From the NCBI RefSeq assembly GCF_003334255.1, contig NZ_QOWU01000024.1: DNA of 64,000 nucleotides; one strand, 5' to 3'. Below the pieces are notes generated by a model that saw only the letters and a list, made by a program, of their open reading frames with translations, was not told the origin of the DNA and did not search any database. Positions 44,622 to 62,914 of the stretch are shown piece by piece (positions within the stretch are counted from its first letter, which is position 1; the number at the start of each line of letters is the position of its first letter). The position numbers were made by a program, and so were the translations under genes. The DNA comes from Escherichia coli. Lineage in GTDB: Bacteria > Pseudomonadota > Gammaproteobacteria > Enterobacterales > Enterobacteriaceae.

Positions 44622-45270
44622 GGACGAAACGCCGCTGGCAGAGATGCATGCGGAATATATTCGTCACATTCCCGGATTCAGTCAGATATTACTGGCGGGA
44701 AATCTGGCGCAGGCCCGAATGATGATCGAGCGTTTTAAGCCGGGGCTAATCTTGCTCGATAACTATCTTCCTGACGGTAGAGGGATTAATTTACTGCATG
44801 AACTGGTGCAGGCGCATTATCCCGGCGACGTGGTGTTTACCACTGCAGCCAGCGATATGGAAACGGTGTCTGAAGCCGTACGTTGTGGTGTATTTGATTA
44901 TCTCATTAAGCCCATTGCCTATGAACGGCTGGGGCAAACGCTAACCCGTTTCCGCCAGCGTAAACATATGCTGGAAAGTATTGATAGCGCCAGCCAGAAG
45001 CAAATTGATGAGATGTTTAATGCTTATGCTCGCGGTGAACCTAAGGACGAGCTACCGACCGGCATTGACCCCTTGACGCTAAACGCGGTGCGAAAACTGT
45101 TTAAAGAGCCTGGTGTGCAACATACGGCAGAAACGGTGGCGCAGGCACTGACCATCAGCCGCACCACTGCCAGGCGTTATCTTGAATATTGCGCCAGCCG
45201 CCATCTGATTATTGCTGAAATTGTTCACGGCAAAGTTGGCAGACCACAACGCATATACCACAGTGGGTGA
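44590..45270 (+). CDS. citB: Response regulator of citrate fermentation
   Basis: 226 aa MTAPLTLLIVEDETPLAEMHAEYI...; receiver domain plus C-terminal HTH; overlaps citA end by 32 nt; also named dpiA. Confidence 0.93.
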   Translation: MTAPLTLLIVEDETPLAEMHAEYIRHIPGFSQILLAGNLAQARMMIERFKPGLILLDNYLPDGRGINLLHELVQAHYPGDVVFTTAASDMETVSEAVRCGVFDYLIKPIAYERLGQTLTRFRQRKHMLESIDSASQKQIDEMFNAYARGEPKDELPTGIDPLTLNAVRKLFKEPGVQHTAETVAQALTISRTTARRYLEYCASRHLIIAEIVHGKVGRPQRIYHSG

Positions 45271-45310
45271 CATGATAAAGCCGGAGGAAACTTGCCTCCG
45301 GCATTACTAT

Positions 45311-46696
45311 TTACTTGCCTGTGACCGCTGCTGCCGTTCCTGGCACCATCAGCTCTGTAGCAACGATAACAATCACCAAACCAACAAGCACCGGTACCGA
45401 GGTGCGTTTTACGACTTCAAACGGCGAGATCTTCGCCATCCCGGCAACCGCAACGACTACGCCAGAAACGGGCGAAAGGGTACGGCCAAGGTTTGACGCC
45501 TGCAGCATCGGGATAGTCAAATACGCCGGGTTAATGCCGGAAGAGTGCGCCAGTTTCGGGATCATCTCAACAAACGCATAAAACGGCGCATTGCCTGAAC
45601 CGGTCGTGACTGCCGCCAGCATTGTCAGAATCACCAATACCAGCATCAGGATGATACTCGCCGAACCAAACGAGGTAGCGATAGAAATCAGACTTTGAAT
45701 AAAGCCGATGGTGCTAAGCCCCTGAGCGAATACCCCAGCGGCAACCAGCAGCATCACCACGTTAGCAAACGCATCTGCCATCCCGCGATAAGCCACTTCC
45801 AGACCAGAGAAAACTTTCTGGGTATTAAAGCTGCGGAGGAACTCCAGAATGGAGGCAATCAGCATACAAATCACCAGAATAGTGATGATGTGTAATTGCG
45901 GACCCCATTTACCGTCAAAAATCAGTACACCGATGATCGGCGTGAACGGCAAAATGGCATAAAACGCAGGAGCAGTGGTGGTGATTTCACTGACATCTAA
46001 CATTTCATGAGAGATGTGCTCTTTTTTATCCAGATAACGTTGCCAGAAGAAGTGGGCGATCGCCATGCCGATAATTGCAGCAATTGAGATAGGCAGCGTC
46101 GTTTTGAAGGCGAAGTCAATCAGCGACATTTCGGAAGCTTGCGCCGCCAGCACCACATCCCCTGAAGTCGGTGCGAGAATAATCGCCGCCGGGGAGGCAC
46201 AAATGGCAGCAGCTGCGCCACGACTGATACCAACGTTTACCATCACCGGAAATAGGGTTGCCATCAGCAAAACACCCAGACCGGTTGCGGAAGAGACGGC
46301 CAGAGACATCAGACAGGCGACAAAATAGGCGGCAATCATCAGCAGGTAAGGGGAGTTAATATACTGCAATGGTTTTGACGCCAGCTTGACCACCATATCA
46401 TTCGCGCCGATATGGGTCATGTAAGCGGCAAATCCACACAGCATCATAATCATCATGCCGAGGTCGCCGCCGCGGCTCATTAGTAATATTTTAACGTATT
46501 CAACGATATCCGTGGCGCTGTAGCCTGTTGAAGCCTGGCTGGACGGTAACACTTTGTGCCCCATAATGGCACTGATAATCAGCAATAACAGGCCACCGAT
46601 AAATAACACACCAGTGGCGGAATACCCTTTAATGATGTAGCGAGCTACACCCACAATAACCACAACCCCAATAAGGAGCTCAATGAATGTCAGCAT
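45311..46696 (-). CDS. dcuC: Anaerobic C4-dicarboxylate transporter
   Basis: 461 aa polytopic membrane protein recognised as DcuC; intact, not interrupted by any IS element. Confidence 0.93.
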   Translation of the reverse strand: MLTFIELLIGVVVIVGVARYIIKGYSATGVLFIGGLLLLIISAIMGHKVLPSSQASTGYSATDIVEYVKILLMSRGGDLGMMIMMLCGFAAYMTHIGANDMVVKLASKPLQYINSPYLLMIAAYFVACLMSLAVSSATGLGVLLMATLFPVMVNVGISRGAAAAICASPAAIILAPTSGDVVLAAQASEMSLIDFAFKTTLPISIAAIIGMAIAHFFWQRYLDKKEHISHEMLDVSEITTTAPAFYAILPFTPIIGVLIFDGKWGPQLHIITILVICMLIASILEFLRSFNTQKVFSGLEVAYRGMADAFANVVMLLVAAGVFAQGLSTIGFIQSLISIATSFGSASIILMLVLVILTMLAAVTTGSGNAPFYAFVEMIPKLAHSSGINPAYLTIPMLQASNLGRTLSPVSGVVVAVAGMAKISPFEVVKRTSVPVLVGLVIVIVATELMVPGTAAAVTGK

Positions 46697-47284
46697 AATT
46701 TTTCCTGTCTCCAGGCCCCAAAGTAAATAATAAAAAATTCCTAAAGCTTAAGGAAAAAATATGCCCAATAAATTGGCGATGAATGCTGATTAAAATCAAG
46801 AAAAACTGCCATTAAGACATTGAAGTTGCTGTTTTTATACATAGATAACAAAACGCATATTTAGCGGTTGGCAATTATCACATAATAATGTGTGCAAATT
46901 GATGGTGGATTGATGCAAATTTGTTAATTGCAATGGTGTTAGCTGCGGCTGTGCGCTCAAAAAATAATCTAATATGAGCATAGGTTGACGATATATATTA
47001 TATACTTCGTTAAGATGATTGTTGTATCTCGTTAAAAAATAAAATAATTTTTCCTTGATTGCATTTTGTCATCAAAAAAGACTTGGTTTTTCTTTTTTGA
47101 CTATTCCCATCGCAGAAAACGACGCATCATCTTTAATCGATGCGCGGAAATATTTAACTTGAACAAGCGGAAATAAATAGAGCAGCTATTCAGATTATTC
47201 TTTATGTTGGGTCTATTAAGGTTATGTTAATTGTAGCTTTGCTATGCTAGTAGTAGATTTTTGATAAATGTTTTATGGTCACAA

Positions 47285-47845
47285 ATGAACGTGAGTAAAT
47301 ATGTCGCTATCTTTTCCTTTGTTTTTATTCAGTTAATCAGCGTTGGTAAAGTTTTTGCTAACGCAGATGAGTGGATGACAACGTTTAGAGAAAATATTGC
47401 ACAAACCTGGCAACAGCCTGAACATTATGATTTATATATTCCTGCCATCACCTGGCATGCACGTTTCGCTTACGACAAAGAAAAAACCGATCGCTATAAC
47501 GAGCGACCGTGGGGTGGCGGTTTTGGCCTGTCGCGTTGGGATGAAAAAGGAAACTGGCATGGCCTGTATGCCATGGCATTTAAGGACTCGTGGAACAAAT
47601 GGGAACCGATTGCCGGATACGGATGGGAAAGTACCTGGCGACCGCTGGCGGATGAAAATTTTCATTTAGGTCTGGGATTCACCGCTGGCGTAACGGCACG
47701 CGATAACTGGAATTACATCCCTCTCCCGGTTCTACTGCCATTGGCCTCCGTGGGTTATGGCCCAGTGACTTTTCAGATGACCTACATTCCGGGTACCTAC
47801 AACAATGGCAATGTGTACTTTGCCTGGATGCGCTTTCAGTTTTGA
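47285..47845 (+). CDS. pagP: Lipid A palmitoyltransferase (outer membrane beta-barrel)
   Basis: Translation from [30 protein letters not shown] (186 aa); ends in the aromatic C-terminus RFQF. Confidence 0.93.
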
Positions 47846-48019
47846 GACAAATGAAGTTTTAGTAACTTCTTTAAAATCAATAGCTAAAATAAGTAACATC
47901 AAAAATAACGCGACTTTTATCACTTTTTAGTAAAGTTACACTGGACAAAGCGTACCACAATTGGTGTACTGGTAACCGACACAGCATTTGTGTCTATTTT
48001 TCATGTAAAGGTAATTTTG

Positions 48020-48229
48020 ATGTCTAAGATTAAAGGTAACGTTAAGTGGTTTAATGAGTCCAAAGGATTCGGTTTCATTACTCCGGAAGACGGCAGCAAA
48101 GACGTGTTCGTACACTTCTCTGCAATCCAGACTAATGGTTTTAAAACTCTTGCTGAAGGTCAGCGCGTAGAGTTCGAAATCACTAACGGTGCCAAAGGCC
48201 CTTCTGCTGCAAACGTAATCGCTCTGTAA
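48020..48229 (+). CDS. cspE: Cold shock-like protein E
   Basis: Translation [37 protein letters not shown]... (69 aa); RNP motifs KGFGFI and VFVHF. Confidence 0.97.
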
Positions 48230-48249
48230 GATACGTCAGCAAGAATTCA

Positions 48250-48277
48250 AAACCCGCTTAATCAGCGGGTTTTTTTT
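48250..48277. terminator. Bidirectional rho-independent terminator between cspE and crcB
   Basis: aaaacccgcttaatcagcgggtttttttt: stem cccgc/gcggg flanked by A-run and T-run. Confidence 0.8.
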
Positions 48278-48282
48278 GGTCT

Positions 48283-48666
48283 TTAGTGTGCGGTTGAGGC
48301 CGAAAACAGCCAGAATGCCAGTGCGGTCATGGCAAAAGACCCCAGAAGGTTGACGAAAACGTTCAGTAATGCCCAGCCAAAGCGGCCCTCTTGTAACAAA
48401 AACACCACTTCTGCCGAAAATGTTGAGAAGGTTGTTAGACCGCCACAAAATCCGGTGGTGATTAATACTTTCCACACTGGATCAATGTTCGTCATCCTGC
48501 TGAACCATGCGAATCCTATTCCTATGATGAATGCCCCAATCAGGTTTGCTGTCAGCGTCCCCAACGGAATCGCCTGATGCAGTGGGTTAAATCGCATACT
48601 TAACAGCCATCTCGCCACGCTTCCCGTACCACCGCCAATAAAAACTGCTAAAAGAAGTTGTAACAC
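48283..48666 (-). CDS. crcB: Fluoride channel (Fluc family)
   Basis: 127 aa [27 protein letters not shown]... recognised as CrcB/FluC. Confidence 0.93.
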
Positions 48667-48752
48667 TGCAAAATCCTGCTATTTGATTTGTATGAGTGAT
48701 AAGTGTAACGCCGAATAATCGTCGTTGGCGAATTTTACGACTCTGACAGGAG

Positions 48753-49546
48753 GTGGCAATGCTGGTTGCCGCAGGACAGTTTGCTGTTACATCTGTGTGG
48801 GAAAAGAACGCTGAGATTTGTGCCTCGTTGATGGCGCAGGCGGCGGAAAACGACGTATCGCTGTTTGTCCTGCCGGAAGCATTGCTGGCGCGCGATGATC
48901 ATGATGCAGATCTATCGGTTAAATCAGCACAGCTGCTGGAAGGCGAATTCCTCGGACTTTACGGCGAGAAAGTAAACGTAACATGATGACGACAATTCTG
49001 ACGATTCATGTTCCTTCAACGCCGGGGCGCGCATGGAATATGCTGGTGGCACTTCAGGCAGGAAACATCGTCGCCCGTTATGCCAAACTGCATCTCTATG
49101 ATGCATTTGCCATTCAGGAATCACGCCGTGTTGATGCTGGTAATGAAATCGCTCCGTTACTGGAGGTGGAAGGGATGAAGGTCGGTCTGATGACCTGTTA
49201 TGACTTACGCTTTCCAGAGCTGGCGCTGGCACAGGCATTACAGGGAGCTGAAATCCTGGTACTTCCTGCCGCCTGGGTTCGCGGGCCGCTCAAAGAGCAT
49301 CACTGGTCAACGTTGCTTGCCGCTCGTGCGCTGGATACCACCTGTTATATGGTGGCGGCGGGGGAGTGCGGGAACAAAAATATCGGTCAAAGCCGGATTA
49401 TAGATCCCTTTGGCGTCACCATTGCGGCAGCGTCAGAAATGCCTGCACTCATTATGGCGGAAGTGACGCCCGAACGTGTGCGTCAGGTGCGCGCGCAACT
49501 GCCCGTCTTAAACAACCGTCGCTTTGCGCCGCCGCAATTATTATGA
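48753..49546 (+). pseudogene. ybeM: C-N hydrolase (nitrilase superfamily) amidase gene split by a frameshift into 77-aa and 187-aa ORFs
   Basis: ORF 48753-48986 ends at TGA 48984-48986; the continuation ([12 protein letters not shown]... through [11 protein letters not shown]... and the conserved Cys region) lies in a different frame from 48983; the two pieces together resemble one ~260 aa C-N hydrolase. Confidence 0.75.
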
Positions 49547-61301: not shown

Positions 61302-62333
61302 TCAACCGTCGATAAATACGTCCGCCAGGGGTTTATGGCACAACAGAAGAGATAACCCTTCCAGCTCTGCCCACACTGACTGACCGTAATCTTGTTTGAG
61401 GGTGAGTTCCGTTCGTGTCAGGAGTTGCACGGCCTGACGTAACTGCGTCTGACTTAAGCGATTTAACGCCTCGCCCATCATGCCCCGGCGGTTCTGCCAT
61501 ACCCGATGCTTATCAAACAACGCACGCAGTGGCGTATGGGCAGACTGGCGTTTCAGGTTAACCAGTAACAACAGTTCACGTTGTAATGTGCGCAACAAAA
61601 TAACCGGTTCGCTGCCTTCCAGACGCAGTTGCTGAAGAATATGCAATGCGCGCTTACTTTTTCCCATCAACAAAGCATCAACCCAATGAAAAGGGGTGAA
61701 ATGCGCGGCATCATTCACCGCCTGTTCAACGCGCGGTAATGTCAATTTGCCGTCTGGCCAGAGCAGCGATAAACGCTCCAGTGCCTGAGCCAGCGCCAGC
61801 AGGTTACCTTCATAACAGTAGCAGAGCACCTGATTTGCCGCGTCATCCAGTTCTAAGTTGAGCTGTTTTGCGCGCGCAGCAACCCAGCGGGGAAGCTGAG
61901 CCTGCTCCGGTGTCTGACAGGTCACCTGCACGCTGCGATTCGCAAGCGCAGTAAACCAGGCGGCATTTTCTTGCGCTTTGCTTAATTTATTACCGCGGAC
62001 GATCAACAGCAGGTCGTCATGCAGAAGTCCGGTGAGTGTGAGAAGTTGCTCATTGATCGCCGCATTCGGTCCGTTTTCTGGTAACAACAGCAATAGCGTT
62101 TGTCGACTGGCAAACAGACTCATAGCCTGGCATAACGAAAAGATCGCATTCCAGTCAGTGTTGGGATCAATGGAAAAAGTGTGGTGTTCTTCGAATCCTT
62201 GTGCCGCAGCTACCTGACGAACAGCGTCCTGGCTTTCCTGCAATAACAGAGGATCGTTACCAAGTAAAAGATACGCCGCGCGCAGCCCTTCATTGAGCTG
62301 CGCGCGGAGTTGTTCCGGGTACAACCGAATCAT
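61302..62333 (-). CDS. holA: DNA polymerase III delta subunit
   Basis: 343 aa [31 protein letters not shown]... recognised as HolA. Confidence 0.95.
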
Positions 62334-62914
62334 CAGTTACCCAGCGTGGTGGAGACGCGTGCAGGCGTTGCCGGAGTATCCGTTGTGGTCGACGTCTGTT
62401 CTTCGTCGGAACGAATATCCGCAGCACGGATGCTTGGCAGCTTACGAATCAGCTGTTCGGCAGCACGGTCGTACATCTCTTTTACGATCATGTCTTGTTC
62501 GTTATCTTTCGCTAACGCCATTTGCGGGTTATCGAAGAACGAACGGAAGACTTTGGCGCTAATCGGGTAGATATCACGGCCGGGGATCAACACGGTCGCA
62601 TTAACCGTCATGATCATCTGATACTCTGCTGTTTGACCGTTACGGAATACCGATGCGGTATCTTTCGCGATGCTCACTTTACCCAAACGCAAGGATGGAA
62701 CGTCCTTACGCGTGGTTTCTTTATCAAGCAACTCGACACCATTCAGACGTAACTGGTTACGCACCGCACGGCTTAATGGCCCGTTCGGATCGCCTGAGTC
62801 CAGGATCATGACCTTCATAGTGGAAGGAACCTGCGTGGTATCACGCAGATGCCAGCCACACCCGGCGGTGATTAACACCGCCAGAGATAACAACAATGTT
62901 GCCAGATATCGCAC
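62333..62914 (-). CDS. lptE: LPS assembly lipoprotein
   Basis: 193 aa; lipoprotein signal [13 protein letters not shown]; recognised as LptE (RlpB); 1-nt overlap with holA. Confidence 0.95.

Follow-up and report, generated by a model that had tools for sequence, protein, structure and literature searches.

The dcuC–pagP intergenic region of Escherichia coli: a probable divergent control region with a hypervariable AT-rich core

Class II FNR-dependent promoters, as exemplified by those of the narG, dmsA, and FF-melR type, possess an FNR box that is centred at -41.5. AT-rich promoters which are silenced by H-NS and subject to counter-silencing include pagC or ugtL in Salmonella as well as gadA/gadE and bgl in E. 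coli. At the level of non-coding DNA, a "regulatory switching" of intergenic regions in E. coli by recombination was reportedly described by Oren and coworkers in PNAS in 2014. A further class is formed by promoters in which a PhoP box replaces the -35 hexamer (architectures I and II), such as crcA; they are composed of a direct hexamer repeat with an 11-bp period, located 12 nt upstream of the -10 hexamer, and they lack a -35 (Zwir et al. 2012). In PhoP-activated promoters generally, the box is in phase with the -10 hexamer at a distance of 12 or 21-23 nt. The pagP gene of E. coli is the orthologue of the PhoP-activated pagP gene of Salmonella, and according to citing work PhoP-dependent transcription of pagP/crcA and a PhoP footprint were described for E. 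coli itself (Minagawa 2003). In this study, we compare the region between dcuC and pagP with these systems. The term "window" designates the entire 64-kb stretch of DNA that was analysed, which is 100% identical to E. coli K-12.

The dcuC–pagP gap comprises 588 bp (46697-47284) and is bounded by the dcuC start at 46696 (- strand) and the annotated ATG of pagP at 47285; window positions were obtained from genome coordinates by subtraction of 609272. We consider it to be a divergent (back-to-back) transcriptional control region without a gene of its own, and we assign a probability of roughly 80% to this reading. An ORF-free, strongly AT-rich stretch of about 590 bp with homopolymeric A/T runs, one of the longest non-coding stretches of the window, had been described in the initial annotation of the sequence, and this description holds, with ORF-free taken in a practical sense. 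Based on the MG1655 annotation, the gap is the longest intergenic gap of the window, the next three measuring 378, 374, and 371 bp. Its GC content is 31.5% compared to 51.8% for the window, so that it is essentially the 588-bp stretch with the lowest GC content within the 64 kb (percentile 0.06%; with 31.0%, the stretch that starts at 46721, within the gap, has the lowest value), and it contains 12 runs of five to six A or T bases. The longest ORF encodes 48 amino acids and has neither a Shine-Dalgarno motif nor conservation. The MG1655 and W3110 records contain no annotated features inside the gap, and for the central 259 bp the feature is given as "none" in all 30 records listed, out of 5382 matching genomes.

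The start site of dcuC has been published. SMRT-Cappable-seq placed the TSS of b0621 at 656023 on the reverse strand, marked "same" as the known operon, which corresponds to position 46751 of the window and defines a 5' UTR of 55 nt (46697-46751, - strand) preceding the ATG at 46696. Relative to this TSS, the -10 hexamer CATATT covers positions -12 to -7 (46758-46763, - strand) and falls within the block AAAATrTGCC-AATAA, which is invariant in alignment A1; the dcuC promoter block is retained in all 46 related non-Escherichia loci. A motif scan revealed the FNR box TTGATTTTAATCAG at 46786-46799 (- strand), which reads TTGATtttaATCAg on the dcuC strand and agrees with TTGAT-N4-ATCAA at nine of the ten consensus positions, the single mismatch being located in the half-site ATCAG. 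The motif alone is not rare, with seven matches in the window compared to 2.6 expected. The half-sites of this box are invariant in alignment A1, and in 35 of 50 loci its exact form CTGATTnAAATCA occurs at a distance of 86-100 nt from the ATG of dcuC; one further locus has it with an insertion. The same 14-mer has been listed as a bound FNR PWM site (655281 in U00096.2) with an FNR ChIP peak and the flag "None" for overlap with nucleoid proteins, and dcuC was classified as "Activated" by FNR (category 1) with an aerobic/anaerobic expression ratio of 0.05, i.e. an approximately 20-fold higher expression under anaerobic conditions (Myers 2013). The entry for this peak bears the remark "TSS not in peak region". 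When the published TSS and the published ChIP/PWM site, which stem from two datasets, are combined, the centre of the box (46792.5) comes to lie 41.5 bp upstream of the dcuC TSS (-41.5). The FNR control that had been expected for the gap, and for which a motif scan had been proposed, is confirmed by this box and the published peak.

The dcuC promoter corresponds to class II FNR promoters with respect to a near-consensus box exactly 41.5 bp from a mapped TSS, a weak -10 hexamer, and the reported binding by FNR in vivo and anaerobic induction through FNR; there is nothing unusual about it apart from the one deviating half-site. In the proposed mechanism, which we regard as established for the left end of the gap, FNR at 46786-46799 would activate a class II sigma70 promoter by recruiting RNA polymerase to the CATATT hexamer, and dcuC would be transcribed from 46751 with the 55-nt leader. 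At about -160 to -177 from the dcuC TSS, a semi-conserved element, TTGATGCAAATTTGTTAAT (46910-46928), represents a candidate transcription-factor site. Its TGTTAAT part is invariant in alignment A1, and 11 of 50 loci, which belong to Escherichia, some Citrobacter, and one Enterobacter, carry the motif [AT]TGATGC-N5-TGTTAAT in a comparable place.

On the pagP side, the -10 hexamer TATGCT (47243-47248, + strand) aligns with the mapped -10 hexamer TATTAT of Salmonella, and the genera compared all share its T, A, and final T. A published ChIP-seq peak of sigma70 (655742 in U00096.2) falls at approximately position 47247, on this hexamer, and rises from 37 to 366 anaerobically. From the promoter sequence, the TSS was placed at about 47254-47255, which would give pagP a 5' UTR of about 30 nt. 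Of the two divergent promoters that had been predicted for the gap, that of dcuC is represented by its published TSS and that of pagP by the -10 hexamer with its sigma70 peak. At 47214-47230 (+ strand), 12 nt upstream of the -10 hexamer, a putative PhoP box with the direct repeat TATTAA-GGTTA-TGTTAA (TATTAAGGTTATGTTAA) is located. The first hexamer (TATTAA) is degenerate in K-12, whereas O157:H7 carries the perfect repeat TGTTAA-GGTTA-TGTTAA (TGTTAAGGTTATGTTAA). The K-12 repeat is the sole match to TGTTAA-N5-TGTTAA with at most one mismatch in the 64 kb, 0.27 being expected; it shows three mismatches to the strict consensus (T/G)GTTTA-N5-(T/G)GTTTA and also resembles an ArcA direct repeat. A motif scan indicated TCTTTAtgttgGGTCTA at 47199-47215 as an alternative or additional PhoP box.

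The arrangement of pagP resembles that of the promoters in which a PhoP box substitutes for the -35 hexamer, with respect to the 11-bp period of the hexamer repeat, the 12-nt distance to the -10 hexamer, and the missing -35. The centre of the box is 32 bp away from the putative TSS, in agreement with the distance given for the crcA site by Minagawa et al. (2003) as cited by Harari (2010). Salmonella pagP differs from E. coli pagP in that its footprinted box is positioned 23 nt from the -10 hexamer (architecture IV) and a second box is present at -126; in the alignment, the E. coli box is shifted downstream by one helical turn relative to the footprinted one. The pagP promoter possesses no usable -35, and the direct repeat at 47214-47230 would take over this role for a start near 47254. 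The PhoP-type control anticipated in the initial annotation, together with the motif scan suggested for it, is supported by this repeat and its spacing, as far as can be judged from sequence.

For pagP, regulation by H-NS, SlyA, PhoPQ, EvgAS, and RcsB-GadE has been reported; published genetics describe derepression in hns mutants and activation by SlyA and RcsB-GadE. In an arcA mutant, expression of pagP was decreased 2.8-fold and that of dcuC 4.1-fold, and the spacer contains a predicted ArcA PWM site. The roughly 400 bp in the middle of the gap are most likely AT-rich upstream DNA to which nucleoid proteins and accessory regulators would bind. Repression by H-NS and counter-silencing by SlyA and RcsB-GadE are reported for pagP, and for both genes an anaerobic induction that depends on ArcA. 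With 31.5% GC overall, 20-26% GC in the core, and its A-tracts, the gap has the composition of H-NS-silenced DNA, and it resembles H-NS-silenced promoter regions in its long upstream stretch at 31% GC and in the genetically determined hns derepression of pagP. Unlike horizontally acquired islands, pagP is ancestral and its synteny conserved. When the H-NS peaks tabulated by Myers 2013 were searched by gene name, no entry for dcuC/pagP was retrieved. Within the gap, matches to the H-NS nucleation motif occur at chance level, no GAD box was found at up to three mismatches, and scans for CRP, NarL, EvgA, RcsB, SlyA, and Fis motifs yielded nothing convincing. A sigma54 scan gave fewer matches than in shuffled sequences; the matches listed lie ahead of the gap.

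Several short palindromes had been noted in the gap, in particular one able to form a hairpin near 47122-47146. This hairpin, cgcatcatctttaatcgatgcg, is real and located at 47123-47144; it is weak and not conserved in the other Escherichia sampled. As + strand RNA it forms 6 bp, and as - strand RNA 8 bp including two G-U pairs. The + strand RNA folds to -10 kcal/mol with z = -2.4, which is a modest excess in view of the many windows tested. The hairpin was flagged as terminator-like on the - strand only. On the + strand, the sequence after the stem is GGAAAUAUUU, which is not a U-tract, and on the - strand it is just CGUUUUCUG. The 5' arm of the hairpin varies among E. coli strains, and the element could not be aligned in E. 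whittamii or Escherichia sp. E1V33. One-sided base changes in the 5' arm were considered as evidence for an RNA stem and rejected, since three of four in-stem transitions retain G-U pairing on the + strand, which is about the chance level. A second palindrome, consisting only of A and T (TCAAAAAAGAC...TCTTTTTTGA, 47072-47101), is predicted to form 10-11 A-U pairs (-7.4 to -8.8 kcal/mol) and does not remain intact in the haplotypes of O157:H7 and B2. Neither of the two elements has the G+C-rich hairpin followed by a U-tract that characterizes intrinsic terminators, and no Term-seq 3' end was found near 47123-47144.

The most AT-rich part of the gap, at 46961-47100, is a hypervariable core. At least five discrete haplotypes exist in E. 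coli, the types named being K-12, O157:H7, B2, 23CRST032, and PapM, with a diversity of 1-4% within and 9-22% between types. The genealogy of the core is uncoupled from that of the flanking genes: the divergence of K-12 from O157:H7 amounts to 0.4% in the flanking genes and 20% in the core, that of O157:H7 from G47-1 to 1.8% in the flanks and 1% in the core. In the comparison of K-12 with O157:H7, only one other 140-bp window of the 64 kb is more divergent than the core. The discreteness of the haplotypes, the uncoupled genealogy, and the rank of the divergence, as well as the control of pagP by H-NS and counter-silencers known from the literature, speak in favour of the view that the central 140 bp constitute a regulatory cassette that is specific to lineages and exchanged through recombination of short patches, which would set the responsiveness to H-NS, SlyA, or RcsB and lead to lineage-specific expression of pagP (or dcuC). 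We consider this view rather unlikely, as the divergence of the core in deep comparisons such as that of K-12 with B2 is only about 1.3-2 times that of the 4-fold sites of the flanking genes and hence compatible with neutral drift plus recombination; moreover, no known regulator motif was found in the core, the GAD box and H-NS scans included, and the gene-name search of the H-NS peaks gave no hit. The spacer shares with regulatory switching (Oren et al. 2014) the discrete, strongly divergent intergenic alleles that are uncoupled from their flanks; it differs in that both core promoters are conserved and lie outside the switched patch, only about 140 bp of upstream spacer being exchanged. An origin of the centre as a repeat or mobile-element remnant was rejected, because it is present as a single copy in 5382 genomes. 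Positions 46937-47176 have no detectable similarity outside Escherichia, as judged from 46 non-Escherichia loci. Long spacers in other genera consist of unrelated material that is not homologous to the E. coli centre; the spacer of Kosakonia contains apparent fragments of efflux-pump genes, according to a reading of its ORF translations.

Being missing from other genera and existing in E. coli in several very different haplotypes, the spacer appears to tolerate rapid turnover, and this turnover together with the divergent haplotypes fits spacer or regulatory DNA under weak constraint and not a gene for an RNA or a protein. The length of the gap had been thought to leave room for an unannotated small RNA or small ORF, but the data support neither: the added length is Escherichia-specific, its core is hypervariable even within E. 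coli, and no Rfam match, structure signal, conserved ORF, Term-seq 3' end, or + strand Cappable-seq TSS was found. The only hint of a small RNA is Ssr31 of Shigella flexneri 301, a computational promoter-plus-terminator prediction of 295 nt in the pagP/dcuC spacer, drawn in the direction of pagP and scored "Yes" by RT-PCR only; Northern blots and RACE were carried out on other candidates of that study (Wang et al. 2016; PMC4782007). Its E. coli counterpart might be transcribed from about 46920-47214 in stationary phase or under stress and either end at the hairpin at 47123-47144, which folds to -10 kcal/mol and is terminator-like on the - strand, or run towards pagP. The published primers delimit an amplicon at 47026-47214, the F primer matching exactly at 47195-47214 (- strand) and the R primer being placed by eye at about 47026-47045, where the length of an A-run differs. 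Although Ssr31 and the gap share the same spacer, neither a size nor ends nor strand proof nor a function were given for it by experiment, and in our assessment the strandless RT-PCR makes a small RNA, read-through, and DNA carry-over indistinguishable. The amplicon also overlaps the hypervariable core, and the polymorphic 5' arm, the restriction to part of the genus, and the missing + strand U-tract detract from the hairpin as an RNA end. An Rfam search of 45000-49000 at a permissive E-value produced only noise within the gap (a plant snoRNA model with E = 3.4 and RT-8 with E = 6.8), folding of 42 sliding windows on both strands gave z-scores between -2.2 and +0.9 and thus no structure signal, and the + strand of the gap yielded no sigma70-like promoter. 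As to the TSS and Term-seq data proposed at the outset, published Term-seq names no 3' ends for dcuC/pagP and none at 655900-656499 in LB and M63 cultures, and no + strand TSS is listed by published Cappable-seq between 653077 and 656393 (U00096.2), an interval spanning the whole gap. The cultures used for Term-seq and Cappable-seq were presumably aerobic and high in Mg, conditions under which pagP is not induced, and SMRT-Cappable-seq selects for long transcripts and would miss a small RNA. These conditions, together with the confinement of the Cappable-seq start list to the + strand, leave some room for the small RNA, which on balance we regard as very improbable. One laboratory inserted a cat-Mu SGS cassette into the dcuC–pagP spacer and obtained a viable strain that was used further. 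It is extremely unlikely that the gap encodes a translated small protein or a leader peptide regulating pagP or dcuC. Several short ORFs are indeed present, e.g. the longest one at 46835-46981 (- strand, ATG, 48 amino acids), which is broken in O157:H7 and B2 strains, and one at 47072-47110 (- strand, ATG, 12 amino acids), which all five E. coli strains of alignment A2 have retained; however, a Shine-Dalgarno motif is missing from every ORF of at least 12 codons in the gap, and none of these ORFs stays intact throughout the seven Escherichia sequences. The short 5' UTRs of dcuC (55 nt) and pagP (putatively about 30 nt) contain no upstream ORF, and neither pagP nor dcuC is named in the main text of a study on small proteins induced by Mg2+ starvation.

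The dcuC–pagP gap is an ordinary one, as both promoters and their regulators are already found in the literature. What has been gained is the exact placement at -41.5 of the dcuC FNR box, a position which the FNR study had left open, and the recognition that K-12 and O157:H7 diverge more strongly in the spacer core than in all but one of the other 140-bp stretches of the 64 kb. A more far-reaching proposal, which we judge to be unlikely, is that 46961-47100 forms a recombining lineage-specific cassette, perhaps with a condition-specific transcript similar to Ssr31, and that K-12/B1, O157:H7, and B2 consequently differ heritably in the silencing or induction of pagP and hence in the palmitoylation of lipid A. 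If the haplotypes did change the expression of pagP, the exchange of non-coding alleles would be linked to the remodelling of the outer membrane and to the interaction of E. coli with its host.

The dcuC-pagP spacer extends from the ATG of dcuC (46696, minus strand) to the annotated ATG of pagP (47285, plus strand), which is followed by cspE and crcB. At 588 bp (46697-47284), it is the longest intergenic gap in the window according to the MG1655 annotation, the next being those of citC-dpiB (378 bp), fepB-entC (374 bp), and dsbG-ahpC (371 bp), and with a GC content of 31.5% vs 51.8% for the window it essentially coincides with the lowest-GC 588-bp stretch of the 64 kb. The longest ORF within it comprises 48 aa, and a palindrome at 47123-47144 has a folding energy of -10 kcal/mol as plus-strand RNA (z = -2.4); the initial annotation had thus described the gap accurately as a long, AT-rich, hairpin-containing region. 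No feature is annotated within the gap in MG1655 or W3110, and none in its central 259 bp in the 30 records listed of 5382 matching genomes. Over 46600-47400, the sequence matches E. coli K-12 MG1655 and W3110 with 100% identity, and of 5426 complete E. coli genomes, 5420 contain this segment. About 45 of the latter cover less than 80% of the segment and two matching places were seen in 37, a pattern compatible with sporadic insertions or deletions in the spacer. One laboratory has placed a cat-Mu SGS cassette in the spacer, and the strain is usable. NC_000913.3 coordinates correspond to window coordinates plus 609272, and the offset from U00096.2 to U00096.3 in the dcuC-pagP region is +777, as set by the coordinate of the FNR 14-mer of Myers et al. 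(2013).

The expected divergent promoters are present: motif scans located an FNR box upstream of dcuC and a PhoP-type repeat upstream of pagP, an assignment that is already known. The single FNR-like box in the gap, TTGATTTTAATCAG, is located at 46786-46799 on the dcuC strand. The motif alone is unremarkable (seven matches in the window vs 2.6 expected); the box is made solid by three independent lines, namely the transcription start site (TSS), a ChIP and site listing, and conservation. Relative to the dcuC operon TSS determined by SMRT-Cappable-seq (656023, reverse strand; window 46751), the box is centered exactly at -41.5 and a hexamer CATATT occupies -12 to -7. The identical 14-mer, CTGATTAAAATCAA (655281, U00096.2), is listed among the FNR-bound sites and has an FNR ChIP peak, and dcuC was classified as directly FNR-activated, its expression increasing about 20-fold without oxygen (Myers et al. 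2013). All 46 non-Escherichia loci with a preserved dcuC-pagP arrangement show detectable conservation of the stretch 46697-46800, the cross-genus alignment shows no variation in the FNR half-sites, and 35 of 50 loci have the exact form CTGATTnAAATCA at a distance of 86-100 nt from the dcuC start codon. The leader comprises 55 nt, and RNA folding revealed nothing unusual in it. These features are those of a textbook class II FNR promoter. Further upstream, about 160-177 bp from the dcuC TSS, TTGATGCAAATTTGTTAAT (46910-46928) represents a candidate site for a transcription factor: 11 of 50 loci (Escherichia, several Citrobacter, and one Enterobacter) carry the pattern [AT]TGATGC-N5-TGTTAAT at a comparable position, within DNA that otherwise lacks conservation. 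An ATTGATG direct repeat with 11-bp spacing lies at 46898-46915.

On the pagP side, a block TGTTAAGGTT..ATT.A followed by the -10 element is conserved in the alignment across Escherichia, Citrobacter, and Salmonella; within the -10 element (TATGCT in K-12; 47243-47248, plus strand), the positions T, A, and the final T are invariant. In Salmonella, mapping and footprinting of the pagP promoter have identified a -10 element TATTAT, a PhoP box CTGTTTATAGTTTGTTAAG 23 nt upstream of it, and a second PhoP box further upstream. The E. coli sequence aligns with the Salmonella -10 element and the second hexamer, and the best direct repeat, TATTAA-GGTTA-TGTTAA (47214-47230, plus strand), is 12 nt from the -10 element, in contrast to the 23 nt in Salmonella. 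No other site in the 64 kb matches TGTTAA-N5-TGTTAA with one mismatch or fewer (0.27 expected). According to Harari et al. (2010), the PhoP site of crcA (= pagP) is 32 bp away from the TSS in E. coli, compared with 44 bp in Salmonella; with the E. coli box centered at 47222, we infer a pagP TSS near 47254, six bases past the -10 element, and hence a 5' UTR about 30 nt long. A sigma70 ChIP-seq peak at 655742 (U00096.2), which converts to about window position 47247, rises from 37 to 366 anaerobically, and pagP expression is about 3.4-fold higher under these conditions. In an arcA mutant, pagP is down 2.8-fold and dcuC 4.1-fold. The ArcA site predicted in the spacer lacked a ChIP peak (Park et al. 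2013). Since the repeat at 47214-47230 also resembles an ArcA-type repeat (GTTAA-N6-GTTAA, one mismatch), pagP induction is reported to be anaerobic and ArcA-dependent, and the sigma70 peak at its -10 element increases 10-fold without oxygen, this repeat might serve two OmpR-family regulators. According to published genetics, pagP is in addition repressed by H-NS and activated by SlyA, EvgAS, and RcsB-GadE.

The suggestion that the gap leaves room for a small RNA or small ORF found no support. Rfam yielded no match in the gap better than E = 3.4, folding z-scores of 100-nt windows on both strands (-2.2 to +0.9) were at chance level for 42 tests, and the ORFs of at least 12 codons in the gap all lack a Shine-Dalgarno motif, none of them being intact in all seven Escherichia sequences. 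The hairpin at 47123-47144 has no U-tract on the plus strand and a poor one on the minus strand, E. coli strains differ in its 5' arm, and the hairpin could not be aligned in E. whittamii or Escherichia sp. E1V33; in the O157:H7 and B2 haplotypes, the neighboring A/T-only palindrome (47072-47101) is disrupted. The complete Term-seq tables for cultures in LB (two densities) and M63 assigned no 3' ends to pagP or dcuC and none to 655900-656499 (Adams 2021), and plus-strand Cappable-seq detected no start between 653077 and 656393 (U00096.2), hence none in the gap (Ettwiller 2016). Within the reach of plus-strand TSS and LB/M63 data, the proposed search for other RNA ends thus speaks against a hidden RNA. 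The SMRT-Cappable-seq protocol selects long RNAs, and none of the Term-seq, Cappable-seq, and SMRT-Cappable-seq cultures is known to induce pagP. The one positive hint is Ssr31, a 295-nt candidate drawn in the pagP direction in the pagP/dcuC spacer, which was among the 57 sRNAs that promoter and terminator predictions suggested for S. flexneri 301 and was scored positive in RT-PCR; Northern blotting and RACE were confined to Ssr1 (Wang et al. 2016, PMC4782007). One Ssr31 primer matches exactly at 47195-47214 (minus strand), the other at about 47026-47045 (placed by eye; the A-run length differs). In our view, RT-PCR alone is strand-blind and does not distinguish an sRNA from read-through or DNA carry-over, and we consider a genuine sRNA of this type in the gap very improbable. 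Downstream, at 47835-48277, the leader and coding region of cspE score 124 bits with the Rfam cspA thermoregulator model RF01766 (gathering score 78). A very strong plus-strand Cappable-seq start at 656590 (U00096.2) would convert to a position inside cspE and does not coincide with the SMRT-Cappable-seq TSS of cspE (657249).

Between the core promoters, at about 46751-46800 and 47199-47255, lie roughly 400 bp. The Klebsiella/Raoultella group has a spacer of 281-307 bp, S. enterica arizonae one of 403 bp, most Citrobacter one of 411-465 bp, and Escherichia one of 558-588 bp, and similarity to 46937-47176 was undetectable in every non-Escherichia locus compared; the extra Escherichia length therefore represents a lineage-specific gain rather than a conserved element. 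An origin of the spacer middle as a repeat or mobile-element remnant was rejected, as it is single copy. In Kosakonia oryziphila and Silvania confinis (loci L054, 1977-3000, and L059, 2076-2994), the spacer measures 0.9-1.0 kb, and ORFs in the former resemble, judged from translations, RND/CusA-type efflux pump gene fragments. DNA seems to have inserted and decayed repeatedly in the dcuC-pagP spacer.

Among E. coli strains, the two promoter ends of the gap hardly vary. The central 140 bp of the gap (46961-47100) differ by 20-22% between K-12 and O157:H7, vs 1.1-1.3% at fourfold sites of dcuC and pagP and 1.7% across the 64 kb, making this core the second most divergent 140-bp window. Thirteen strains carry at least five discrete core haplotypes (K-12, O157:H7, B2-like, 23CRST032-like, and PapM-32-1), with 1-4% diversity within and 9-22% between them, where the flanking genes differ by 0.3-2.8%. 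The genealogy of the core haplotypes is uncoupled from that of the flanks: the divergence of O157:H7 from AUSMDU00014361 is 0.3% (flanking genes) and 21% (core), and from G47-1 it is 1.8% and 1%, respectively. This pattern argues against a conserved gene in the core and suggests that old alleles have been exchanged through short-patch recombination, as opposed to hypermutation that is still under way. The most divergent 140-bp window (62561-62700, 21%) lies inside lptE (62333-62914, minus strand), where 30 of 39 nucleotide differences between K-12 and O157:H7 fall at gene positions 222-338, with nine amino-acid changes in all; the cluster resembles a patch exchanged by recombination in this essential gene of LPS assembly. 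Scans of the core for the H-NS motif and the GAD box found no regulator motifs, and a gene-name search of the H-NS peak table in the supplement of Myers et al. (2013) gave no dcuC or pagP entry. With a probability of roughly 0.15, the core may be a recombining regulatory cassette that exerts lineage-specific effects on pagP, possibly together with a condition-specific transcript.
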